From NCBI GenBank assembly GCA_001830425.1, contig MIAA01000026.1:16675-80674 (forward strand): a stretch of DNA of 64,000 nucleotides, written 5' to 3'. The position numbers were made by a program, and so were the translations under genes. This DNA is from Rhodospirillales bacterium RIFCSPLOWO2_02_FULL_58_16 (GTDB taxonomy: Bacteria; Pseudomonadota; Alphaproteobacteria; Rhodospirillales; 2-02-FULL-58-16). Under the pieces are notes generated by a model. It saw only the letters and a program-made list of their open reading frames with translations, made no database searches and was not told where the DNA came from. Positions 44,864 through 61,846 of the stretch are shown here, piece after piece; position 1 is the stretch's first letter, and each line of letters starts with the position of its first letter.

Positions 44864-45373
44864 ATGAAGGCCGATTCAAAACCAAAGGAAGCCGCCATGA
44901 AAATAACATCAATGTTGATAGCTGTTTTTGCTATTTTCTTTTCCTTTCAAGGAATTGCCGCTGCATACCCGTCGAATCAACAGGAAGCGCGACAAGATAC
45001 CCATGATAATCGACTGCAATTAGCGCAAAAACGTCCTGAGGGCCGCAAAGACAACGTCAAAGGGCGTGCGGGCAACCGCCAAGATAAGGCCGAAGGGCGT
45101 GCGGGCAACCGCCAAGATAAAATCGAACAGCGCCGGGAAAACGTCCAAGAGCGCATGGGTGATCGTCGAGACAAGATCGAACAACGCCGGGAAAACGTCC
45201 AAGAGCGCATGGGCGACCGCCAAGACAAGATCGAACAGCGCCGGGAAAACGTCCAAGAGCGCATGGACGACCGCCGGGACAAGATCGAACAGCGCCGGGA
45301 AAACACCCAAGAACGCATGGAAGACCGCCGGGACAAGATCGAACAGCGCCGGGAAAATATCAAAGAAAAGTGA
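44864..45373 (+). CDS. secreted charged tandem-repeat protein
   Basis: A signal peptide is present ([23 protein letters not shown]). About four copies of the 20-aa unit [18 protein letters not shown] follow. AAGAGG lies upstream of ATG 44864, and ATG 44897 is an alternative start. Confidence 0.65.
45062..45358 (+). repeat. tandem repeats inside the CDS: 2 x 33 bp then about 4 x 60 bp
   Basis: GGGCGTGCGGGCAACCGCCAAGATAA occurs twice. The unit ATCGAACAGCGCCGGGAAAACGTCCAAGAGCGCATGG...GACAAG then repeats at a 60-nt period. Confidence 0.9.
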
Positions 45374-47276: not shown

Positions 47277-49217
<1,941 letters not shown>

Positions 49218-49249
49218 TTTCCCTCCTGAGGCTTGTTGCAAACAGTTGT

Positions 49250-51202
49250 TTATAACCCGATGTCCTCGCCCAAGGCTTCGACCTTCTTCCGGGGCATGGT
49301 TGACATTTCCATTTTGTAGGCCAGAAACCACATCATTCCCACTCCCAGAATCCAGAATACAATCTGCCAGGCCCAGATCGACGGCATGCCGAAAGTCCAC
49401 GCCTTGACGGCGCCGGCGTTCGGCGATCCGAAGATATCGTTGCCGATGACGGCGCCGGGGCCGACGCCGAAGAACAACCATCCGAGGGTGATGATCCAGG
49501 CAATGGGCTTCAGGCCATGCTTCTCGGCGGGAAGACCGGCATTTTCGGCCAGGAAGTTATGGAACTTCATGCGGTGAGCGCGCTCGCTGTTATTTTGGGT
49601 CATCGCCGAGACGGGCAGACAGACGGCCAGATTCATGATTATGCCCCAAACCGCCGAATGAACGGTCCATGGCCAACGGCCCCAGGCCAAATCGACGCCG
49701 AAAAAGCCGGCAATCGAAACGCCGAGCGATTCGGTAAAGATAACGCCGAGGATGCCGGCAATCAGGCCCAGCGTCACCCCCTGCCGGGTGAGCTGCGGGA
49801 AATAGGTCGCCGCCGCCAGTGACGGCCACATCTGCAAGCCGAAAGCCGCCGCCATGCCGCCGAGAAAAACCGGATTGTCGGTAAAACAGGCCGCCGTCGT
49901 CAGCGCCGATGCCGCGATAAGGATAACGCTGATGCGCCCGAACAGCTTTTGGGCTTTATGTGAAGCGGTCGGGCTGAGGTAGCGTTTGTACAGATCGCGG
50001 GTCAATATGCCGCCGGTCGTTGACATATGGGAGGCGCTCGCCGCCTGGAGGGCCGCCAGGGCGCAGACCGCCAGCAGGCCGACCAGCCACAGGGAACTTT
50101 TACCGACGGAGTTGATGTAATGAGCGACCAGAGCGCCATGCTTGTCGGCGGTCAGGTCAGGCAGTGCGTTGCCGAGGGCAAGGCCGGCTTCCGTCACGGC
50201 GGCGTCGGCGCCCAGAAGATGCGCCCCTATGCCCTGGACGGCGGCGAACAGGAACAGGATAAAGCCGATGCCGAAGGAAGACGCCCATACCTGCTGAGGA
50301 GCGAACGGCTTGGGATTGTTGCCGGAGAAGGCCCACATGGTGAACGCCGGGGACGACTGGACGCCCATCAGCGCGAACAGGAAGGTCAAGCCCATGACGC
50401 CCGTCCACAGGCCGCCTGTCGGCGTCTCCTTGCCCAGTCCGGCGGTGAACTGGATCACGCCGGGCATGGCGAAGTAGGCGTTATAGTCGCCGCCGCCGAG
50501 GCCCTTGGTCGCGCCCCATTTGCCGAGATCGGACGCGGCGAGTCCGGCAAGGCCGTTCTGCAGGGCGTTCCATCCTCCGATATGGTCAAGGGCGATCATG
50601 CCGATGATTATGACGCCGAGGCCGAGCAGGACGCATTGCAAAGCGCCCACATAGGTTACGGCTCTTAGTCCCCCCAGGACCACATAGATTATAACGGAAA
50701 CCGAAAGCGCCCACATGCCGACGTTGGCGCTGATGAGACCGTCGGTAAGCACGTTGAACAGCAGGCCGGACGCCCGCAACAACACGCCGAGACAGGGGAT
50801 TGAAAACAACAGGGCCACGCCTACCGTCAGGATGCGGACGGCATCGCCCCGGAAATAGTCCGCCAGCATCTCGCCCGGCGTCACATAGCCGAAGCGTTTG
50901 CCCAGCATCCATTGGCGCTTAAAGAAAAGGACGCCGGTAAACGGGATGGCTATGGCGCAGAACGAGGCGTAGGCATAGGGGAACCCGTCGCGGTAAATCA
51001 TCCCCGGATGATCTATAAAGACCCATCCTGAGAACGATATGGCGGTGGCCGCGAGGACGAATGCCCACGTCGGGGTTTGACGGCCCGAAATGAAGTAATC
51101 GGCAGCCGTCTTGGCCGTCCGGGCGCACTTGATGCCCCAGAAGACGCAGTAGGCCCAATAAAGCGCCACGAACACGAAAAGCCAGGTTGCTTTTGCCGAC
51201 AT
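49250..51202 (-). CDS. sodium:solute symporter family transporter (possible monocarboxylate/acetate permease)
   Basis: 650-aa polytopic protein with about 14 TM helices, immediately upstream of acs on the same strand. The substrate is inferred from context only. Confidence 0.7.
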
Positions 51203-51294
51203 GGCCTTAAGAATAAGGGATTCCCTGAATGCCGCAAGACGATTAGCGGTTTGTGACCGGATTCAATCGCCTGCGGCATTCCCAGAACTATTGG

Positions 51295-51477
51295 TTACAT
51301 TTTCCCGGCCCTTTCCGCCTTCCCGGCCCAAAAGGCCAGGAGCATAAACAGAGCCGCGCCCGAACCCCAGGCCAACGCGCCGCCCGGCATATTCAGCATG
51401 GGAACCAGGGCATAGGCCAGAGCCAATAACAGCCAGACGACCGCTACCAGCACCAACAGCTTGATATCGTTACTCAT
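51295..51477 (-). CDS. small 2-TM membrane protein (accessory subunit of either the oxidase-like complex or the symporter)
   Basis: 60 aa with two hydrophobic helices. GAGGAGG lies 7 nt upstream of the ATG, and only 13 nt separate it from the stop of the oxidase-like gene. Confidence 0.5.
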   Translation of the reverse strand: MSNDIKLLVLVAVVWLLLALAYALVPMLNMPGGALAWGSGAALFMLLAFWAGKAERAGKM

Positions 51478-51490
51478 ACCTTGGTCCTCC

Positions 51491-53158
51491 TCAATGACCG
51501 GCGGCGCCGCCGGCGATCACCGGCAGCGACGTCATCAGCGTAAACGCCGCCCAGGTGGCGGCTCCCATCAGGAAAAGAAGAAACGCCACCGAGGTCGAGC
51601 CGCCCCATGCCGCTTGCCGGAGCGCCAGAGGCTCAGGCGCCGGAGCAAGCGCCGTTTTCGCCCTTATGGCTTTGCGGCCCAGGCCCACAAGCGGCAGCGC
51701 CGCCCCGAGAGTCAGAAGCACAAGGCCGACGGCCATTACCGCCGCTCCCGCGCCGATGATCTGGGACAGCATCGTCCAGGCAACGGGCGCGGCGCCTTCA
51801 TAGCCGGCATCGAGCACCCGCCTGGGCATACCCTGCGCCCCCGCCGCCGCGCCGGCGAGTCCGAACAGCAGCAGGCCCGCCGTGATCAGCCAGGGCAGGC
51901 GGGAAAGCAACTTCGGCGCCGGGGCGTTCTGACCCGTCAGATGCGGAAGCAGGCGCAGCATGACCGCCAGCAGCGTCATCGTCACCACCCCCAGAGTAAT
52001 AAAGTGGAAAGCGCCGGGGACGAAGAAGGTGTCCGACAGCAGGCCGGCCAGTTTCTCCTGGATCAGGACGAAGGCCAGAATGCCGCCCAGGGCGAGGTTC
52101 ACCACCGCCGCTCCCAGCGCGTTCGTGGCCGGATCGCTCCAGTCGAGGCTGCGTATCCAGCCGAACCATCCTTTTGCTCCCTTGGCCCGCGCATGCGCCT
52201 CCAGCGATGCCGTCGTCACCAGAAAGGCGGCGATGGTGGGAACGCCTATGAACAGCGACAGGAGCGATCCCAGCACCAGCACCAGAGGATCAAGACCCGG
52301 CTCCAGGAACATGTGATAGAGCGAGGTCGGCGGCACGAAGACCAGATAGAGCGTGAAGACGATCTTCGAGAAATTGCTGCCGAACACCGAACGCGCCCCC
52401 GAAATCTCGGGCAACAGCAGGGTCCAGGCGAGCATGGCGCCCAGCAGCGGCAGATAGTGCATGTTGTGAAACAGCACATGCCACAGCGTGACATGATCGG
52501 CGGGGAACTCTTCCCATCCCGCCGCCCACAGCGCCGCCGGCAGAAAGGCGTTGGCGAGCGTTGCCGCGCTTACCAGCACCAGTCCGCCCCAGAGTACGGC
52601 TCCGAACCCCGGACCCGACCACTCCCCGCCCCGGCTTCGTTTCGCCGCCATCAGGGTGGCGATGGCGGGCATGGTCAGCGCCGCCAGTCCGAGCGCCTGC
52701 ACCAGATAACCGAGATAGAAGAGAAAGGCGCCCAAGCGTTCCTCGCCCGCCAATTCCGGGGAGCCGTCATAAAGCAGCGGCGTTCCCGACAGCGTTCCCG
52801 TCGCCTGAAGGGCAAAGGCGATCAGCATCAAAGCCCCCCCGGCCCAGCCCAGTCCGTTAAGCGCCAGCGGCGCCCGGCGTTCTTTGGCCGCCAGCACCAG
52901 AAGCAGCGCTCCCTGCGCCAGCGACAGCCAGTGAAAGAACACCGCCACCCCGTGCATGGTCAGCACCCGATAGCCGGTTTCGGGGAGTTCGGGCCGGGCA
53001 ATGCCGTTGCGCGCCATGGCTGCCCATAGTCCCATGAACAGGCCTAAAAACAAGGCGGCCAGAGACAGCGTGAACAGGGCACGGATCAAATGCCGGTCAC
53101 GCGGGGCGATCGCTTCCATCGCCTCGCCGAGGGAGATGTCTTGATGTTTGATTGTCAT
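51491..53158 (-). CDS. heme-copper oxidase subunit I-like protein, divergent
   Basis: 555-aa polytopic protein starting at ATG 53158 (GGGAGG upstream). It has LTMHG (helix II), FHNMHY (His-x3-Tyr), SLYHMF and GAFHF motifs at ba3-like positions. Confidence 0.7.
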   Translation of the reverse strand: MTIKHQDISLGEAMEAIAPRDRHLIRALFTLSLAALFLGLFMGLWAAMARNGIARPELPETGYRVLTMHGVAVFFHWLSLAQGALLLVLAAKERRAPLALNGLGWAGGALMLIAFALQATGTLSGTPLLYDGSPELAGEERLGAFLFYLGYLVQALGLAALTMPAIATLMAAKRSRGGEWSGPGFGAVLWGGLVLVSAATLANAFLPAALWAAGWEEFPADHVTLWHVLFHNMHYLPLLGAMLAWTLLLPEISGARSVFGSNFSKIVFTLYLVFVPPTSLYHMFLEPGLDPLVLVLGSLLSLFIGVPTIAAFLVTTASLEAHARAKGAKGWFGWIRSLDWSDPATNALGAAVVNLALGGILAFVLIQEKLAGLLSDTFFVPGAFHFITLGVVTMTLLAVMLRLLPHLTGQNAPAPKLLSRLPWLITAGLLLFGLAGAAAGAQGMPRRVLDAGYEGAAPVAWTMLSQIIGAGAAVMAVGLVLLTLGAALPLVGLGRKAIRAKTALAPAPEPLALRQAAWGGSTSVAFLLFLMGAATWAAFTLMTSLPVIAGGAAGH

Positions 53159-53169
53159 TGTCGCCTCCC

Positions 53170-53889
53170 TCAAACCACGTCGATGCGGGCGGTCATGGTG
53201 CGGTCGTGGTAAGCGCCGCAATAGACCGTGCAATAGACAAGATGCGAACCTCTTTCGGTGAAGGTTATGTCGCGCTCCGCCACTGCGCCCGGACGCAGAC
53301 GGTTGATCAGACTGCCTTTTCCTACTTGAATCGAGGCGCCGTGGCTGACGTCGAGCGCCATCATGCTGAAACGGTAGCTTTTCCCCATTTCCAGCTTCAG
53401 CCACGCGGGATCGAATCCCCATTGATAGGCCATCAGGTAGACCTTGGCCCCGTCATCGGCCTCAGCGACCGCGCCGTGCATATCGTGCGTCGTCTGGCCT
53501 TGCGGCATGGAAGGCATGTTATGCGTTGCCGACATGCCGTGTCCGGCGTGGGGGTCGAGGACGGCTGGTTCGGGTGAAAAGCCGGGGAACACGCTGCCGT
53601 CCGCCTGTTTCCAGCGTTCGGCATGGGTCTTTACAAGTCGGCGGAATTCGTCAGGCGTCGGTCCCTGGACCGGCGCCCCGTGGCCGCCATGACCGTTCAT
53701 GGCTTCCGGTTGGGCTTCCGGTTGGGGCGCCCCGTGGCCGCCATGCTCATCCGGATTCGTTTTTGTTTTGCTTTTCGTCGCTCCCAGGGCCGTCCAGACG
53801 CCGTAAAGGCCCAGTATTCCAAGGCTTGCCGCCACTACGAAGCCCCGTCGCGTGGACAGGTTTCGGGCGTGATCATGCTCACGTGTCAT
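53170..53889 (-). CDS. cupredoxin (oxidase subunit II-like) protein with His/Met-rich region
   Basis: It has a Tat-like N-terminus (STRRGFVVAASLGILG), two HGGHGAP repeats and the stretch HAGHGMSATHNMPSMPQGQTTHDMHG. The C-terminus reads DVSHG...YCTVYCGAYHDRTM, a CuA-like motif. Confidence 0.7.
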   Translation of the reverse strand: MTREHDHARNLSTRRGFVVAASLGILGLYGVWTALGATKSKTKTNPDEHGGHGAPQPEAQPEAMNGHGGHGAPVQGPTPDEFRRLVKTHAERWKQADGSVFPGFSPEPAVLDPHAGHGMSATHNMPSMPQGQTTHDMHGAVAEADDGAKVYLMAYQWGFDPAWLKLEMGKSYRFSMMALDVSHGASIQVGKGSLINRLRPGAVAERDITFTERGSHLVYCTVYCGAYHDRTMTARIDVV

Positions 53890-53962
53890 CGCTTTTGCTC
53901 CAATATCGTCGTTGATGAATAAGACTCCCCGGGACGAATAGGCCTCCCGAGGGGTAAGGAAT

Positions 53963-54319
53963 TCAGACGATGATTCGGGGCGGAGCGGGATCGGGGATAA
54001 GGGTGCGGCCCGAAAGCGGGCGGGACTCGCCCGGCATAAGGCGCAGCGGGGGGTGAGTCTTGACGCTCGCCGCCGGCGTCGCCCCGTCCGGTAATGGAGC
54101 GGGGCAACAGACCAGGGCGTAGCCGGATGACGAAATTGTCCCGTCGGGGGCCTGAGTGTTCAGGGGGGCGTGCTGTTCATGATGCCGGTCAACGGGAATG
54201 ATATCAGCCGCGCCGCTCAAGTGGCGGGCATGCGCGCTCCCCGCTCCGGCCAGGGCGGCGATTACCAACATCGCCGTCAAGGCGTATGCGCACCGGCGAA
54301 GACTTAATCGAAACACCAT
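53963..54319 (-). CDS. secreted hypothetical protein
   Basis: 118 aa with a signal peptide (AMLVIAALAGAGSAHA), first gene of the minus-strand cluster. Confidence 0.45.
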   Translation of the reverse strand: MVFRLSLRRCAYALTAMLVIAALAGAGSAHARHLSGAADIIPVDRHHEQHAPLNTQAPDGTISSSGYALVCCPAPLPDGATPAASVKTHPPLRLMPGESRPLSGRTLIPDPAPPRIIV

Positions 54320-54439
54320 GGCCGGAACCTTAGTCGGAGCGGACGAGGCCTGTCAATTGCTCATAGATTGATTGTCCCGTAATTCTGTCGCAATTTTTTA
54401 CATTTCCGGGTATGATTCGGCTTACGCGACGATGATTGA

Positions 54440-54691
54440 ATGGTCTTTAAGATATGGAGGCCCGGCGTGGTCGGTTGCTCTCATGACGCTCCTTTCTGGC
54501 GTTCCAGGACCGGCGTCGCTCTGCTGGCGTTCCTCGCTTTTGCCGGCGTATTGCTGGTTTTTGAGCACTGGGCGCATCTGGCGGGAGCGTTGCCGCTGTT
54601 GTTGCCGTTGTTGATTTGCATCGGCATGCATTTCTTCATGCATGGCGGTCACGGCCACGGCGGCCACGGCTCTGCCGACAAGAAGGAGTGA
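54440..54691 (+). CDS. DUF2933-like small membrane protein with His-rich tail
   Basis: It has two TM helices and a C-terminal CIGMHFFMHGGHGHGGHGS. The alternative start GTG 54468 has GGAGG 6 nt upstream. Confidence 0.6.
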   Translation: MVFKIWRPGVVGCSHDAPFWRSRTGVALLAFLAFAGVLLVFEHWAHLAGALPLLLPLLICIGMHFFMHGGHGHGGHGSADKKE

Positions 54692-54696
54692 CGGCG

Positions 54697-55338
54697 ATGA
54701 CCGACGCCGCTCCCGCCTACGGTTTGTGGCTGCTCGTTATCGTTAACTCGGCTGTGTTCATTCTGTTCGCCGCCAGCTTCAGCCGCCCGAAGGATGTCCG
54801 CGACTGGCGTTCGCTCGGCGCCTTTTCAGCCTTCGTGGTGGCCCTCTTCGCCGAGATGTACGGTTTTCCGCTGACTATATACCTGCTGTCGGGTTGGCTG
54901 GGCGACCGTTATCCGGCGCTCGATCCCTTCGGCCATGACGCCGGCCATTTGTGGTCAACCCTGTTCGGGCTTGAGGGTGACCCTCACTTCAGCCCGCTGC
55001 ACATCCTCAGCAACCTGCTTATCGTCGCCGGATTCATCATCATTGCCAGGGCGTGGCATGTGCTGCATGCCGCCCAAGCCGGGGGTGAGCCGGCGGTCAC
55101 AGGCCCTTACGCCGTGATCCGTCATCCCCAGTATATGGGGTTCATCGCCGTGCTGCTGGGCTTCCTGTTGCAATGGCCGACCCTGCTGACGCTGCTGATG
55201 TTCCCTGTGCTGGTCGTCATGTATGTCCGTCTGGCAAGAACCGAGGAGCGCGAAGCCCGAGACCGCTTCCCCGTGCGTTACGCCGATTACGTCGCTCAAG
55301 TCCCCGCCTTCATCCCCCATATCGGGGGAATGAAATGA
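54697..55338 (+). CDS. isoprenylcysteine carboxyl methyltransferase (ICMT/PEMT) family membrane protein
   Basis: The motif GPYAVIRHPQYMGFIAVLLGFLLQWPT...EEREARDRF is present. I chose ATG 54697 as the start. Confidence 0.75.
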   Translation: MTDAAPAYGLWLLVIVNSAVFILFAASFSRPKDVRDWRSLGAFSAFVVALFAEMYGFPLTIYLLSGWLGDRYPALDPFGHDAGHLWSTLFGLEGDPHFSPLHILSNLLIVAGFIIIARAWHVLHAAQAGGEPAVTGPYAVIRHPQYMGFIAVLLGFLLQWPTLLTLLMFPVLVVMYVRLARTEEREARDRFPVRYADYVAQVPAFIPHIGGMK

Positions 55339-55374
55339 TGCCTTCGCCTGCAACCATTTATCAAGGAGTTTCCC

Positions 55375-56460
55375 ATGCCTGTGGACCCGGTTTGCAAGAT
55401 GCAAGTGACTCCGGCGGCGGCGGCGGCCGGCATTGAGTTCGAGGGAGAGCAGATTTATTTCTGCTCCTTGGGCTGTCGTGACCGTTTTCTGGCCGATCCG
55501 GCCTACTTTCGTGCGGCCGGCGGCGCATCCGGCCTGAAATCCGAGGGACATTCGTGTTGCGACAAGCGGATATCGGCGTCCGGGCAATTCACATGGATGT
55601 CGTTCGGGGCGGCGGCGGGCGTCGGTTTATCGGGAACAGCCGCGCTGCTGATCCTTTATTTCGGTCTGTTGACCCTGGTCTCGGGATGGTCGTTCACCCT
55701 TGACCAGTTCCGCGATTTTGGGCCGTTCATCGTCGCGCTTGCGGTGGGGTTCGGCATCCAGGTAGGTCTGTACGTCTATCTTCGCCGCGCCCTGCATGCC
55801 GCCCATTCGGGGAAAGTGGTTGCCGTCACCGGCGCCACCTCCGGCGCGGCCATGGTGTCTTGCTGTACGCACTATCTGGTCAATCTGCTGCCGGCGCTCG
55901 GCGCCGCCGGGCTGGTTTCGCTGGTCAGTCAGTACCAGATCGAACTGTTCTGGTTCGGTCTGGCCGCCAATCTTGCCGGAATTGTCTATATTGCACGCCA
56001 ACTGGCGGCTTTTATTCATGCCGACTTCGGCAATCCGCAGATGGCGGCGGGTTTGCTGCTGACGGCATTCATCGGCGCGGCATCCTTAAGCTTGCCCGCT
56101 TCCGTCATGGCGCAAAACGCGATGCTGACGCCCCTGGAGAATAGGGAAGGGCGGGTAACGGTCAAGGTAACGCCGCAGATGCTGTCCGCATCGGCGAAAC
56201 TTTGGCAGTTCCAAGTGGTCCTCGATACGCATTCAGTCGCATTGGATCAGGATATGTTGGCCGTCGCCGTGCTGGTTGACTCTGCCGGGGGCGAGCACAA
56301 GCCGGCGGCCTGGGATGGCGACCCGCCCGGCGGCCACCACCGCCAAGGGCTTCTGACATTCAAGCCGACGGCTCCCGTTCCCTCCACGGTGTTGCTGAAA
56401 ATTCGCACCGTGGGCGGCGTTGTCGAGCGCTCGTTCACATGGAAACTTGGTTCTCCTTAA
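55375..56460 (+). CDS. YHS/TRASH-domain membrane protein
   Basis: The N-terminus reads MPVDPVCKMQV...YFCSLGCRDRF, a YHS/TRASH metal-binding motif. Five or six TM helices and a soluble C-terminal domain follow. Confidence 0.7.
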   Translation: MPVDPVCKMQVTPAAAAAGIEFEGEQIYFCSLGCRDRFLADPAYFRAAGGASGLKSEGHSCCDKRISASGQFTWMSFGAAAGVGLSGTAALLILYFGLLTLVSGWSFTLDQFRDFGPFIVALAVGFGIQVGLYVYLRRALHAAHSGKVVAVTGATSGAAMVSCCTHYLVNLLPALGAAGLVSLVSQYQIELFWFGLAANLAGIVYIARQLAAFIHADFGNPQMAAGLLLTAFIGAASLSLPASVMAQNAMLTPLENREGRVTVKVTPQMLSASAKLWQFQVVLDTHSVALDQDMLAVAVLVDSAGGEHKPAAWDGDPPGGHHRQGLLTFKPTAPVPSTVLLKIRTVGGVVERSFTWKLGSP

Positions 56461-56606: not shown

Positions 56607-56759
56607 ATGACCAAAGCGAATAAAGCGACCGCCAACGGCAAAACCGACAAGTCCCCGAAAGATATTATCGCCTATCGCAAGAGCTGTGACGCCGAAGGCA
56701 CCGGCCTGTCTCATTACATCCTGATGGATAAAAAGCCGACCGCCGGCAAGTCTGAATGA
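56607..56759 (+). CDS. 50-aa putative RiPP precursor peptide (not in the supplied ORF track)
   Basis: ATG 56607 has GGGAGA 6 nt upstream. The product is MTKANKATANGKTDKSPKDIIAYRKSCDAEGTGLSHYILMDKKPTAGKSE. TGA 56757-56759 overlaps the ATG of the rSAM gene (ATGA). Confidence 0.6.
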   Translation: MTKANKATANGKTDKSPKDIIAYRKSCDAEGTGLSHYILMDKKPTAGKSE

Positions 56760-58165
56760 CTCAAGCCGATCTCGCCCCGCGTTCTGCGGAGGCGTCGCCG
56801 TCGGGCCGCTATTTCAACAGCGGCGCCGGTCCCGCCCTACAGTGCATCGACATCGGTCACGAGACCTATATCGGCGTCGTCGATCCGGACACGGCGTTCT
56901 GGTCATTAGTGCCCAAAGATCGGCTGGCCGAGACTCTGGCCGGCGGTCCGCTGCTTGACGAGTACCGTAAAAAATCAGCCGGTTTCGCCGATGAGATGGA
57001 GATGCTGCGCTTTAACCTGAAGCCGTCGGCGGTTTATTTTAATCCGACGGAGCGCTGCAATCTGGACTGCACCTACTGCTACATTCCCGGCGACATGCGC
57101 AAGCACGGTCGCCACATGACCGGCGACGAAGTGATGGCGGCCCTGGAAAAGCTCAAGGCCTACTTCAAGAAGACGGTGCCTGAAGGCCGCTTGCCCCAGG
57201 TTATCTTTCACGGGGCCGAGCCTATGCTCAACCGCGAGGCGGTTTTCGCCGGCATCGAGGCCTTCGCCGATACCTTTCGCTTCGGCGTGCAGACCAACGC
57301 CACCTTGCTGGACGGCGAGTCCATTGATTTCCTGACCGGCCACGGTTGCGGCATCGGCCTGTCGCTGGACGGTCACGAGGCATCCATCGCCGACAGGACG
57401 CGCTCGACCTGGGGCGGCGCCGGAACCTTCGACGCGGTGGTCAAGGCCATTGAACGCCTGCGCGGCTATGACGGCTTTAACGTCATCTGCACCATTACCC
57501 GGGAGAACGTCAAGAACCTGGTCAAGATGGTCGATTTCCTGCACGGCCACGAGGTTCCCGCCTGTATGCTGAACGTCATCCGCTGCACCTTGCCGAGGGC
57601 GCGGGGCATCAAGGCCGGGGACGCCGAAACGGCAGAACACTTCATCGCCGCCGTCGAGCGCAGCCATCAGCTTTACCGGCAAACCGGGCGCAAGATGATA
57701 GTCGCCAACTTCGCCAATATCCTGATCTCGATCATCGCCCCGACGGCGCGCCGCTTGATGTGCGACATCTCGCCCTGCGGCGGCGGACGCAGTTTCTTCG
57801 CCCTGGCCCCCGACGGCGGCATGTTCCCGTGCAGCGAGTTCATCGGCTTGCCCGCCTTCAACGGCGGCAACCTGTTCACCGATCCGGTTGAAAAAATCCT
57901 GGAAAGCCCGCAGTTCAAACATGTAACCGGGCGCAAGGTGGAAGATATATCGCCATGTAATCGCTGCGCCATCCGTCACTTTTGCGGCTCTCCGTGTCCC
58001 GCCGAAGCCCACGAAATGAACGGCGGCATGGATAAAATCGGCGCTTATTGCGAATTCTACGAAGAACAGGCCCGCTATGCCTTCCGCCTGATCGCCGACG
58101 GCAAGGAAAATGATTTTTTGTGGGAAGGCTGGGATAACGGCACGGAAACGGTGTTCGGACTTTAG
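56756..58165 (+). CDS. radical SAM / SPASM-domain peptide-modifying enzyme (putative RiPP maturase)
   Basis: The radical-SAM motif is CNLDCTYC (Cx3Cx2C). The SPASM signature is CGGGRSFFALAPDGGMFPC, then CNRCAIRHFCGSPC, then a final YC. An N-terminal extension of about 95 aa precedes the rSAM core. Confidence 0.85.
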   Translation: MTQADLAPRSAEASPSGRYFNSGAGPALQCIDIGHETYIGVVDPDTAFWSLVPKDRLAETLAGGPLLDEYRKKSAGFADEMEMLRFNLKPSAVYFNPTERCNLDCTYCYIPGDMRKHGRHMTGDEVMAALEKLKAYFKKTVPEGRLPQVIFHGAEPMLNREAVFAGIEAFADTFRFGVQTNATLLDGESIDFLTGHGCGIGLSLDGHEASIADRTRSTWGGAGTFDAVVKAIERLRGYDGFNVICTITRENVKNLVKMVDFLHGHEVPACMLNVIRCTLPRARGIKAGDAETAEHFIAAVERSHQLYRQTGRKMIVANFANILISIIAPTARRLMCDISPCGGGRSFFALAPDGGMFPCSEFIGLPAFNGGNLFTDPVEKILESPQFKHVTGRKVEDISPCNRCAIRHFCGSPCPAEAHEMNGGMDKIGAYCEFYEEQARYAFRLIADGKENDFLWEGWDNGTETVFGL

Positions 58166-59066: not shown

Positions 59067-60068
59067 ATGCAAGGCGTCGCCGAAACAACTTCACCGGGGT
59101 TTCCCCTGCAAGTCCCCGATATTGCCGTCTCCGTGCGTCAAACGTTCGGCATCGACAGCGATATGCGGGCTCCGGCCTTCAGCAGGGCCGAGGAGCATGT
59201 GCCGGAGATCGACGGCGCCTATCAGTTCGATCATGACACGACGCTGGCCGTCCTCGCCGGGTTTGCCCATAACCGCCGGGTCATGATCCAGGGCTATCAC
59301 GGCAGCGGCAAGTCAACTCATATCGAGCAGGTGGCGGCGCGGCTGAACTGGCCGTGCGTCCGCCTTAACCTGGACAGTCATATCAGCCGCATCGACCTTA
59401 TCGGCAGGGACGCCATTGTTATTCGCGACGGCGAGCAGGTTACCGAGTTCAAGGAGGGGATGCTGCCCTGGGCGCTACAAAACCCGGTCGCCCTGGTTTT
59501 TGACGAATACGACGCCGGAAGGCCGGACGTGATGTTCGTCATCCAGCGCATCCTTGAGGCTAACGGCAAGCTGACCCTGCTTGACCAGAACAAGGTGATG
59601 ACTCCTCATCCTTCATTTCGCCTGTTTTCAACCACCAATACGGTCGGGCTGGGCGACGCCACAGGTCTTTATCACGGCGTTCAGCAGATCAACCAGGGCC
59701 AGATGGATCGCTGGAATGTGGTCGCCACCCTCAATTACCTGCCGCCCGAGGACGAGATCAGGATCGTGCTGGCCAAGGCGCCGTCCTACGATAACAAGGA
59801 AGGCCGCAGGACGGTAGCCGCCATGGTGGAAATGGCGGGCATGACCCGCACCGGCTTTATGAACGGCGATATATCAACCGTGATGTCGCCGCGCACCATA
59901 ATCACCTGGGCCGAAAACGGCGAAATCTTCGGCGACCTGGAATTCGCCTTCCGCCTGACCTTCCTCAACAAGTGCGACGAGCTGGAGCGTTCGGTGATCG
60001 CCGAATACTACCAACGCTGCTTCGGCGCCGATTTGCCGGAATCGGTGGCCAAGGCGCCGCTGCTTTAG
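59067..60068 (+). CDS. cobS: cobaltochelatase subunit CobS (AAA+/MoxR-like ATPase)
   Basis: Walker [10 protein letters not shown] and Walker B ALVFDEYD are present. Length 333 aa. The gene is followed by cobT. Confidence 0.9.
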
Positions 60069-60079
60069 GGTCCAAACTC

Positions 60080-61846
60080 ATGCCACAGGCGGAGCCTCCC
60101 TCGGAACTGCTCAAGCGCGTCACCGCCGCCGCGTTGGTCGGCGTCGCCGGAGCGCCCAGGGCGCCGGATCGAATATTCGGCGGCAACGCCGCGCTTTTGC
60201 CCGAGCCGCCGCGCCGCGCCATCGTTAAAGATGACGTAACCAGACTGCGGGGCGCCGCCGACGCCGTGGCCGTGCGCTTTCGCCATCATGACGAAGATGC
60301 GCATCATCGCCTCATGCCTTCCGGCGTCGAAGCCCGTCAGGTTTACGAGGCCGCAGAGCAGGCGCGTCTTGAAGCCTTGGGCGGTCGCCGTCTGTCGGGA
60401 GTCGCCGATAATCTGGGGGCGCGTCTTGAGGAGCATTGCCGGGATTTCTCCGGTATCGCCGACCGCGAGGCGACGCCCATCGCCGACGCCGTAGCCCTGC
60501 TGGTGCGCGAAGTTCTCACCGGATTGCCGCCGCCGGCCTCGGCCGGCGCCATGATGGAGGCGTGGCGTCCCTGGCTGGCCGAGCGGATGGGCAAGGGGCT
60601 TGGCCGACTGGCCGATTATATTGACGACCAGGACGCTTTCGCCGGAACCATGACCGAGATGATCTCCCGTCTGGAGCTTTCCGATGCGGATCAGGCCCCG
60701 GATTCGGATCACGGCGAAAGCGAACAAGACGCCGGTTGTGATGACGAGGATCATCAGCCGGACGCCGCCACCGCCGATCAGGAGTCTGTTGACGGCGGCC
60801 TGGGCGGGACGGACGTAGACAAAGCAAAAGCGCCGCCCATGCCCGGCGAAGACATGCCCGCCGATCCCGGCCATGCCCGCCGTCCCGATAATGCCGCTTC
60901 GGCGCAAGTTGTTTACCGCGCCTACACCACCGCTTTTGATCAAGTGATCAACGCCGACAAAATATGCGACTGCCGGGAGCTTACCAGACTGCGCGCCCAG
61001 CTTGACCAACAGCTTTCCCATCTGTCGGGAATGGTAAGACAGCTTGCCAACCGTCTTCAGCGCCGCCTGCTGGCCAAGCAAACCAGATCATGGAATTTCG
61101 GCCTTGATGAGGGCTTGCTGGATTCGGCGAGGCTGGCGCGGGTGATCGTCGATCCGGTTCATCCTCTTTCTTTCAAGCAGGAGGCCGAGACCGACTTTCG
61201 TGACACTGTGGTCGGCCTGCTGATAGATAACTCCGGCTCGATGCGCGGACGTCCGATAACGGTGGCCGCCATGTGCGCCGATATTCTGGCGAGAACCCTG
61301 GAGCGTTGCGGCGTCAAGGTGGAAATTCTCGGCTTCACCACCCAGGCCTGGAAGGGCGGTCATGCGCGTGAAAAGTGGGTGGCCGACGGCAAGCCGGACC
61401 ATCCCGGACGCCTCAACGATCTCTATCATATCATTTACAAGAGCGCCGACGCCCCCTGGCGGCGGACGCGGCGTAACCTGGGGCTGATGCTGCGCGAAGG
61501 CCTGCTTAAGGAAAACATCGACGGCGAGGCCCTGTTGTGGGCGCACTCCCGCCTGCTGGCGCGGCGCGAACAGCGGCGCATCCTGATGGTTATCTCCGAC
61601 GGCGCTCCGGTCGATGACGCCACCCTGTCGGCCAATGCCGGCGTCTATCTGGAGGCCCACCTGCGTCAGGCCATATCATGGATCGAGACCCGCTCCGAGG
61701 TCGAACTCACCGCTATCGGCATCGGCCATGACGTTAAACGTTATTACCGACGGGCCGTCACCATCTCCGGCGCCGAAGACCTGGGCGGCGCCATGATGCA
61801 GGAACTGACCGAACTGTTTGATGAGAAATCCTCCCCCTTGCTTTAA
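60080..61846 (+). CDS. cobT: cobaltochelatase subunit CobT (vWA domain)
   Basis: It has an acidic middle region and a C-terminal vWA domain with the MIDAS motif [12 protein letters not shown] chose ATG 60080 ([13 protein letters not shown]) as the start. Confidence 0.9.

Follow-up and report, generated by a model that had tools for sequence, protein, structure and literature searches.

A Tyr-substituted relative of B-family haem-copper oxidases encoded beside copper-associated genes in a Rhodospirillales bacterium

The window analysed here is a stretch of 64,000 nucleotides on contig MIAA01000026.1 of Rhodospirillales bacterium RIFCSPLOWO2_02_FULL_58_16. It contains four tightly packed genes on the minus strand, encoding in order a small Cys-pair protein of 118 aa (53963..54319, an open reading frame, ORF), a subunit II-like CuA cupredoxin of 239 aa (53170..53889), a subunit I-like haem-copper oxidoreductase of 555 aa with about 13 transmembrane helices (51491..53158), and a two-helix membrane protein of 60 aa that is probably a third subunit (51295..51477). 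The cupredoxin was assigned by phmmer, Foldseek and AlphaFold2 (AF2) modelling, subunit I by the same three methods and Pfam COX1, and the 60-aa protein by its ORF, its conservation in the family and its ribosome-binding site. The complex appears to descend from the B-family (ba3-like) haem-copper oxidases, and to represent an apparently undescribed, deep, Tyr-substituted clade linked to copper defence. The predicted sequence elements for electron transfer from a periplasmic CuA centre to a low-spin haem are all retained, and a strictly conserved, non-canonical site (H231, H234, Y235, Y281, H282 and usually Y383) is predicted where relatives hold the haem-copper centre. In our preferred reading, which we regard as an even call, the genes encode a copper-stress-linked membrane redox complex of three subunits with the upstream Cys-pair protein as an accessory, and the complex probably functions as an electron sink for the oxidation of periplasmic Cu(I).

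Subunit I and its catalytic site

Subunit I matches Pfam COX1 (PF00115) with an E-value of 2e-40 and 139 bits, the cutoff being 34.8, while none of the NCBIfam models reaches its cutoff. The closest solved relative by sequence is subunit I of cytochrome ba3 from Thermus thermophilus (phmmer, E ~1e-27). The AF2 model, built on 114 homologues, has a predicted local distance difference test score (pLDDT) of 91 and a predicted template-modelling score (pTM) of 0.92, and in Foldseek it superposes best on the same ba3 subunit (TM 0.77-0.79). Residues were paired from a HMMER alignment to T. thermophilus ba3 and converted to native ba3 numbering, and all spatial statements on subunit I are made by homology to ba3. 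H69 is paired with H72, H231/Y235 with H233/Y237, Y281-H282 with H282-H283, A383-F-H385 with H384-F-H386, and R446/R447 with R449/R450. It could be argued that this is an ordinary B-family oxidase and that the missing His are an artefact of the alignment, since ba3 is the closest solved relative by both sequence and fold and the relatives carry the name 'cbb3-type cytochrome c oxidase subunit I' from the Prokaryotic Genome Annotation Pipeline (PGAP). The posterior support is, however, high around all four motifs, Tyr and Ala are placed at the His positions without any alternative His near Tyr281 or Ala383, and in the canonical relatives aligned alongside, HH and GHFH are seen. A mis-registered ordinary oxidase is refuted by this, and we find the explanation hardly credible.

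Both His ligands of the low-spin haem are present, two of the three CuB His are kept (H231 and H282), and the catalytic haem lacks its proximal His. The codon of His69, the first low-spin axial ligand position, lies at 52952..52954 (minus strand, as all features of the unit). The motif H231-N-M-H234-Y235 (52454..52468) holds a CuB ligand position and the position of the cross-link Tyr, and H234 is an extra invariant His at the position of ba3 V236. The helix-VI pair H231-x3-Y235, predicted to be capable of forming the cross-linked cofactor, is invariant in the family. At Tyr281-His282 (52313..52318) Tyr has taken the place of the first helix-VII CuB His, the second His being kept, and in Ala383-Phe-His385 (52004..52012) Ala occupies the proximal position, followed by the second low-spin ligand, H385. 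The Arg pair of the haem propionates is Arg446-Arg447 (51818..51823).

A search of 5.8 billion proteins gave 688 homologues, and the best 120 of these, all about 555 aa long and 49-100% identical, were aligned. Invariant among the 120 are H69, W226-H227, F230-H231-N232, H234-Y235-L236 (position 233 being Leu or Met), P276-P-T-S-L-Y281-H282-M-F-L, S375-D376, F384-H385 and R446-R447; the pairs Y281-H282 and R446-R447 are also kept in the wider clade. Position 383 is Tyr in 111 sequences; the others have Thr (5), Ala (2), Val (1) or Asn (1). Ala383 is found only in the window protein and in one relative that is 90% identical, and these two also share the change Y246T at a position (ba3 Y248, in the K-path) that is Tyr in 118 of the 120.

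A preliminary description, made from the sequence alone, had read the motifs LTMHG (H69), FHNMHY (H231 to Y235), SLYHMF (Y281-H282) and GAFHF (A383, H385) by eye in a register almost the same as that of ba3. The HMMER alignment reproduces this register, with every quoted string at the residues given for it. The description had also proposed that the low-spin haem ligands and the His-Tyr pair are retained and that the first helix-VII His is a Tyr, and both proposals hold in all 120 homologues. It further took the proximal His to be absent, which is correct for the window protein with its Ala383; in the family, however, the residue is not simply missing but is usually Tyr, and the Ala is specific to this lineage.

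The single K-type proton channel of ba3 is formed by Y237, Y244, Y248, S261, S309, T312 and T315. Subunit I keeps Y235, T308 (for S309) and, in nearly all homologues, Y246, which is Thr in the window protein. The other positions are changed relative to ba3, Y244 to V/M, S261 to G, T312 to V/A and T315 to V/I. D372 and H376 of ba3 are replaced by Ala and Ser, and W229 by His. Proton pumping of the ba3 type seems unlikely because the D372/H376 pair and most of the K-path residues are lost.

The Tyr-substituted clade and the other components of the complex

To describe the family more widely, 1.84 billion cluster representatives were scanned exhaustively with HMMER, which gave 281 matches, 33 of them with E <= 1e-30. 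The full-length representatives with Y-H at 281/282, reaching down to 24-36% identity, all have Y-x-H at 383/385 and H-x-x-H-Y at 231-235, and H231, H234 and Y235 are unchanged even in members at 24% identity. Tyr is the proximal residue in all 15 other clade representatives. The canonical set G-H-P-x-V-Y, H-H and G-H-F-H was seen only in sequences at 30% identity or less, as against the clade signature F-H-x-x-H-Y / P-P-T-x-x-Y-H / V-P-[GA]-Y-x-H. In a neighbour-joining tree the 16 Tyr-type sequences form one clade with the canonical B-like sequences outside; the tree is crude and has no labelled references, so that it supports the monophyly but not an exact branch point. The sister group keeps all six His and carries a G-H-T-x-Q-Y motif; in its members P0280, P0292, P0296, P0307 and P0338, G-H-[TSM]-x-Q-[YQ]-V-N-V replaces G-H-P-x-V-Y-F-W. 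The Tyr substitution is a family trait, and not decay. The profile alignment and the phylogeny did not recover six His and did not place the protein in an ordinary B- or C-family clade, and the suggestion in the preliminary description of a haem-copper offshoot with a remodelled active site is borne out by the monophyletic clade with its substituted motifs.

A scan of 185,579 species genomes found 235 stretches that encode relatives; 80 loci were collected and further contigs added. Relatives occur in at least 235 species genomes, among them those of Azospirillum, Paracoccus and Hydrogenophaga, which can be cultivated, and the organism names listed for them are all of Alpha-, Beta- or Gammaproteobacteria. 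A tblastn search against plasmids found the module on three Azospirillum chromids only, unannotated on all of them. A public protein identical to the window's subunit I, from the groundwater metagenome-assembled genome 'Rhodospirillales bacterium RIFCSPLOWO2_12_FULL_58_28', is named hypothetical protein. Full-text literature searches turned up no account of a haem-copper family substituted with Tyr, nor of any homologue of oxidases encoded in cop clusters.

In every one of the 82 loci, subunit I is immediately preceded by the cupredoxin gene. Its product has a single membrane helix in the AF2 model (aa 14-34), after a predicted Tat-like motif S-T-R-R-G-F-V (aa 12-18; 53836..53856) in which R14, R15 and F17 are invariant or nearly so among 121 homologues. 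This agrees with the S/T-R-R-x-F-L-K type of twin-arginine translocation (Tat) motif before a hydrophobic segment, and Tat export is predicted. It is followed by a His-rich linker with two HGGHGAP repeats (aa 49-72; 53674..53745), predicted to be disordered, of which the second repeat, G-H67-G-G-H70-G, is invariant. A conserved and confidently predicted helix (E-F-R...D-G-S-V) separates this linker from a His/Met-rich segment, HAGHGMSATHNMPSMPQGQTTHDMHG (aa 114-139; 53473..53550), which is also predicted to be disordered. H117 is nearly invariant in this segment, its length and Met content differ among relatives, and phmmer matches it weakly (E = 5e-4) to the multicopper oxidase CueO (6evg), in its Met-rich region.

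The C-terminal beta-sandwich is a CuA cupredoxin domain (aa 148-239; 53173..53448; pLDDT ~90-96). It matches the CuA domain of ba3 subunit II with E = 4e-7 in phmmer, and the best Foldseek matches of the subunit are CuA domains, with a root-mean-square deviation of about 2 Å over 96 residues. All five CuA ligand positions (H183, C220, C224, H228 and M232) are invariant or nearly so in the 121 sequences. The C-terminus reads DVSHG...CTVYCGAYHDRTM, with an extra T231 between the CuA His and Met (H-D-R-T-M). This insertion is found in only 3 of the 121, the window protein and its two closest relatives, and the remaining 118 have the canonical C-x3-C-x3-H-x2-M. The features listed for this protein in the preliminary description (TRRGF near the N-terminus, the two HGGHGAP repeats, the His/Met-rich segment and the C-terminal motif) are all present, and the CuA Met does stand one residue further out here, but this is a trait of the lineage. 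The same description named subunit I and the cupredoxin correctly as partners, and left the small membrane subunit and the Cys-pair protein unlisted.

In 75 of 82 loci subunit I is directly followed by a gene for a homologue of the 60-aa protein, and W15, Y22, P26, M30, W37, G38, G40 and F44 are conserved in this family. The Cys-pair protein, which is probably secreted or anchored, combines a hydrophobic N-terminal segment with a stretch rich in His, a CC motif (..YALVCCPAP..) and the C-terminal tail P-A-P-P-R. A copy that is 74% identical is found in locus L087, which carries the 90%-identical relative of subunit I, and comparable upstream proteins occur in about 31 of 82 loci (e.g. L036 8742..9095 and L042 8739..9140), whose only shared features are a hydrophobic stretch holding the Cys pair and an (R/P)PP(K/I/R) tail at the C-terminus. 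In the betaproteobacterial loci of Rhodoferax, Polaromonas and Hydrogenophaga the slot is occupied by CopG/DUF411. Pfam gave no match at E <= 1 for either the Cys-pair protein family or the 60-aa protein.

The start of subunit I (MTIKHQ, 53158) is preceded by a GGGAGG ribosome-binding site and lies 11 nt past the cupredoxin stop. A longer ATG start at 53422 was rejected: it would overlap the upstream gene, and the N-terminus of the family gives it no support. The 60-aa gene begins 13 nt past the stop of subunit I and is preceded by GAGGAGG, likewise a ribosome-binding site. Comparison with the DNA of L087 gives dN/dS values of 0.20 (subunit I), 0.21 (subunit II), 0.12 (60-aa protein) and 0.32 (Cys-pair protein). 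These values indicate that all four genes are under purifying selection, and working rather than decaying. A pseudogene state or decay in the window lineage, with Ala383, Thr246 and the extra Thr of the CuA loop in mind, is ruled out because dN/dS is about 0.2 and the reading frames are intact. A scan for sigma-70 promoters and terminators across 51100..54500 detected nothing promoter-like; one terminator-like site, inside subunit I, was below shuffle expectation.

Five distant representatives at 24-36% identity were traced to their contigs (L088, L089, L090, L092 and L094). Subunit II is directly upstream of subunit I in all five, and a small ORF is directly downstream in L088, L090, L092 and L094, with none in the gene table of L089. 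In the distant subunit II proteins the membrane helix is closely followed by a GGH motif, and they share the conserved helix between the linkers as well as canonical CuA motifs. A haem O synthase gene above the TIGR01473 cutoff is found beside or near the operon in four of the five, just downstream in three. Because this synthase of farnesylated haem is linked to the operon and the Arg pair is invariant, the catalytic haem site is probably still occupied in the clade. Flanking the operon of L090 (24% identity) are genes for a multicopper oxidase, a CopC-CopD fusion and SCO1, and two distant members have a cytochrome c gene nearby, one of them also a cupredoxin gene. We also observed GAF-HisKA_3/GerE two-component genes upstream in two distant members, and AhpC/TSA and thioredoxin genes divergent to the operon in one.

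Copper genes, proposed function and rival explanations

All ORFs within 6 kb of the module were clustered across the 82 loci, and recurrent clusters were named by Pfam on representatives. The neighbours include a CopA-type P-type ATPase in 27 loci, DUF2933 in 17, an ICMT-like methyltransferase in 15, an LTXXQ Met-rich protein in 13, CusA, CusB and MerR/CueR in 10 each, CopG and DUF305 in 9 each, a multicopper oxidase in 7 and CusF in 6. At least one of these copper-associated neighbours is present in 47 of 82 loci. For copA, the observed 33% in a 12-kb neighbourhood can be compared with an expectation of well below 1%, a rough estimate from one to three copA per genome. The genes often run in the same direction, for example in Paracoccaceae copA-cueR-Cys-pair protein-cupredoxin-subunit I-small subunit, and in Hydrogenophaga pseudoflava, on one strand, multicopper oxidase-CusF-CopG-cupredoxin-subunit I-small subunit-Met-rich protein-DUF2933-ICMT-CopA. 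A divergent DUF2933-ICMT arm is found in Azospirillum, where it extends to Cus genes, and in the window. DUF2933-ICMT is part of the Cu-induced merR-copA-cupredoxin-DUF2933-ICMT clusters of Alteromonas (PMC8478169). Relatives of the module carry DUF2933, ICMT, copA and merR/cueR together beside it, while the window has only DUF2933 and ICMT. The module is therefore genomically tied to copper homeostasis, and from this we infer that the complex belongs to the copper-stress response. The metal-handling role which the preliminary description had offered as an alternative finds its backing in these neighbours.

In the reading that we prefer, the His-rich and His/Met-rich arms of the Tat-exported CuA subunit would capture periplasmic copper, possibly aided by CopG or the Cys-pair protein. 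The electrons of Cu(I), delivered directly or by way of CopG or the Cys-pair protein, would pass from CuA to the low-spin haem and on to the remodelled haem/copper site, where a terminal acceptor would be reduced. This acceptor would most simply be O2 at low tension, but O2, H2O2 and NO are all conceivable. The complex would then be a membrane-bound counterpart of the multicopper cuprous oxidases.

Several observations weigh against this proposal. A copper gene is lacking within 6 kb in 35 of 82 loci, though many of these contigs are short, and within the 64-kb window there is no copA, cueR, cus or multicopper oxidase gene. A CueR-type operator was looked for upstream of the module and none was found; MerR/CueR-type long-spacer promoters with dyad symmetry gave two weak matches in the 82 loci. 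The window's own protein has Ala at 383, not the Tyr of the family, and Tyr383 has been lost at least three times independently (to Ala, to Val in P0023, and to Thr/Asn in another sub-clade) without a new His nearby. Because of these repeated losses without a compensating His, Tyr383 may not be an essential haem ligand. Furthermore, the positions of the ba3 O2 channel are bulkier (A120 to F/L, T231 to L, G232 to F, V236 to H), and because of this and, where present, of the Tyr ligand, fast O2 reduction by the classical mechanism is doubtful; the terminal acceptor is therefore the weakest link of the proposal. The Fe(III)/Fe(II) potential of a tyrosinate-ligated haem, as in catalases, is normally very low, which argues against binding of O2 to the ferrous haem. 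Both substrate and acceptor are guesses.

A more specific version of the proposal is a 'respiratory cuprous oxidase', a new catalytic type in which the CuA subunit captures Cu(I) by its His/Met arms with the help of CopG or the Cys-pair protein, and a tyrosinate-ligated haem O faces a copper held by His231/His234/His282 and Tyr281, the electrons going to O2 or peroxide. We consider this version possible but unlikely. If true, it would link copper detoxification to the respiratory membrane, and it would be the first haem-copper family in which the proximal haem His and one CuB His have both given way to Tyr. The six His of subunit I are usually taken as the signature of the haem-copper superfamily, and here a deep clade under selection replaces two of them with Tyr. 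That this happened with the rest of the electron chain kept implies that a wider chemistry may be possible on the haem-copper scaffold. The consistent placement in copper-resistance clusters points to a component of bacterial copper defence that has gone unrecognised, and the family may explain Cu(I) oxidation when multicopper oxidases are limited.

Other functions can be imagined for the same set of residues. The complex could be a copper-tolerant back-up terminal oxidase, respiring O2 with electrons from ordinary donors, its altered ligands robust at high periplasmic copper and copper being only the inducing signal. The retained CuA, low-spin haem, Arg pair and His-Tyr pair are in line with this, as are the partial K-path (Y235, T308 and mostly Y246) and, in distant members, the linked haem O synthase and the cytochrome c (two members) or cupredoxin (one) nearby. 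It leaves the invariant His-rich motifs of subunit II unexplained, the O2-channel positions are bulkier, and the loss of two canonical ligands would be unprecedented in an O2 reductase (PMC11214002), so that we hold it to be quite unlikely. If the haem is instead ligated by Tyr and meets H2O2, the enzyme could be a membrane-bound counterpart of peroxidases, the intermediates being reduced via CuA and the low-spin haem and copper-driven Fenton chemistry being limited. Ligation of a haem by Tyr favours its ferric state and peroxide chemistry. The proximal Tyr found in 111 of the 120 members, as in the other clade representatives, fits, as does the copper-stress context, and one may point to the distant member with the AhpC/TSA and thioredoxin genes, but this pair could equally be a TlpA/Sco-type system for CuA assembly. 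With Tyr383 dispensable in several lineages, that of the window included, and with a buried site that in known relatives is reached by hydrophobic channels, a peroxidase is no better than quite unlikely.

A divergent reductase of NO or another N-oxide, fed through CuA and akin to the nitric oxide reductase (NOR) families eNOR, bNOR, sNOR, gNOR and nNOR, has a slim chance in our estimate. Published offshoots related to the B-family with remodelled sites have been proposed or shown to be NO reductases, several designs supporting NO reduction (PMC11214002), gNOR is a precedent for the replacement of a CuB His, and the Tyr clade adjoins B-like sequences. Those families are, however, defined by the loss of the active-site Tyr, and Y235 is invariant here; the proximal His is replaced in none of the described NOR families; and no nir, nor or nos gene is among the identified neighbour clusters (those present in at least 6 loci, the unnamed ones looking like antisense artefacts), the identified ones being copper genes. 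The chance is equally slim that the complex is a non-catalytic relic, an oxidase scaffold reused for binding, sequestering, sensing or chaperoning copper. The variable proximal ligand and the loss of ba3 D372, H376 and most of the K-path would agree with it, and so would the many His, Met and Cys motifs of subunit II and the accessory proteins. But the low-spin ligands, the Arg pair, the CuA ligands and H231, H234, Y235, Y281 and H282 show no variation across a deep clade, which is the signature of a working redox chain, and distant members have a linked haem O synthase.

The likeness to ba3 of T. thermophilus (subunits I, II and IIa) extends to the whole complex: about 13 helices in subunit I, a CuA subunit II with one membrane helix and a small extra membrane subunit, and within subunit I the low-spin His pair, the H-x3-Y pair, the second helix-VII His and the Arg pair. 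Unlike in ba3, the family has Tyr for H282 and for H384 (Ala here) and His for V236 and W229; subunit II carries a twin-arginine motif as well as long linkers rich in His and Met, there are two helices in the small subunit, and the genomic context is copper resistance and not respiration. The B-derived families eNOR, bNOR, sNOR, nNOR and gNOR were all defined by loss of the active-site Tyr, and gNOR, which has Asp for a CuB His and lacks the CuA ligands in its cupredoxin subunit, was called the first family to replace an active-site His (Murali et al. 2024, PMC11214002). They resemble the present complex in branching off near the B-family, in their remodelled catalytic sites and, mostly, in having CuA subunits. 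They differ in that Y235 is invariant and the proximal His replaced here, and in their context of denitrification instead of copper homeostasis. In contrast to gNOR, the CuB His is replaced by Tyr and not by Asp, and all CuA ligands are present in the window's subunit II.

Among periplasmic copper proteins, CopI has a single type-1-like copper site. The CopI protein of Rubrivivax gelatinosus is cupredoxin-like and binds copper via His-rich and His/Met-rich segments (PMC13308877). The window cupredoxin also has such segments, a likeness by description, and like CopI and the cupredoxin of the merR-copA-cupredoxin-DUF2933-ICMT clusters it is encoded in copper-resistance clusters (PMC13308877, PMC8478169). 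Unlike CopI, it is membrane-anchored, has a two-Cys CuA motif and invariably has a homologue of oxidase subunit I as its partner. The multicopper oxidases CueO, PcoA and CopA would share the proposed job of taking electrons off periplasmic Cu(I), and a multicopper oxidase gene lies within 6 kb of the module in 7 loci. They have Met-rich substrate-capturing segments and Tat-type export signals, as proposed for the window's subunit II. In fold and cofactors, however, they are unrelated: they consist of three cupredoxin domains with a trinuclear copper centre, while the window complex would have a membrane CuA and haems, and its activity is hypothetical. A haem-copper oxidase as sink for electrons from metal ions via cupredoxins is known from Acidithiobacillus ferrooxidans, in the aa3 oxidase of the rus operon with AcoP and rusticyanin. 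That enzyme differs from the window complex in that it oxidises Fe(II), is a canonical A-family member with all six His, and acts in a process shown experimentally.

Genes around the operon

The copper-related block of the window spans 51295..56460. Divergent from the unit, on the plus strand, are a DUF2933 protein ending in HGGHGHGGHG (54440..54691; Pfam PF11666, E = 8e-16), its usual partner, an ICMT/PEMT-like membrane methyltransferase (54697..55338; Pfam PEMT and ICMT), and a membrane protein of 361 aa with an N-terminal YHS domain (Pfam YHS, E = 3e-9) and an S-C-C-T-H-Y transmembrane motif (55375..56460). The transmembrane domain of the latter occurs free-standing near the module in 6 related loci. 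Directly downstream of the module, on the minus strand, are the genes for a sodium:solute symporter family protein (Pfam SSF, 650 aa) and acetate–CoA ligase, AcsA (47277..51202), which are ordinary metabolism genes marking the edge of the block. In the loci L001 and L007, which carry a relative at 66% identity, the module is directly followed by an SCP2-domain gene and two peptidase-U32 genes (L001 9892..12472). These resemble the genes for O2-independent ubiquinone synthesis, presumably UbiT, UbiU and UbiV, and they give a hint of a low-oxygen lifestyle.

The other side of the copper block is flanked by cbpA-cbpB-cobS-cobT, the last two encoding the cobaltochelatase subunits CobS and CobT (59067..60068 and ~59972..61846, plus strand). 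Immediately upstream of this region, and thus beside cobalamin-pathway genes, is a pair belonging to the ribosomally synthesised and post-translationally modified peptides, the precursor peptide CbpA (56607..56759, plus strand; TIGR04164, 64 bits) and the radical-SAM maturase CbpB (56756..58165, plus strand; TIGR04163, 709 bits). Further away, an ORF at 44864..45373 on the plus strand encodes a protein of 169 aa with an N-terminal hydrophobic segment and no NCBIfam match, and within it, at 45108..45357, lies a tandem repeat of 54 bp in 4.6 copies with 90% matches, which corresponds to units of 18 aa.

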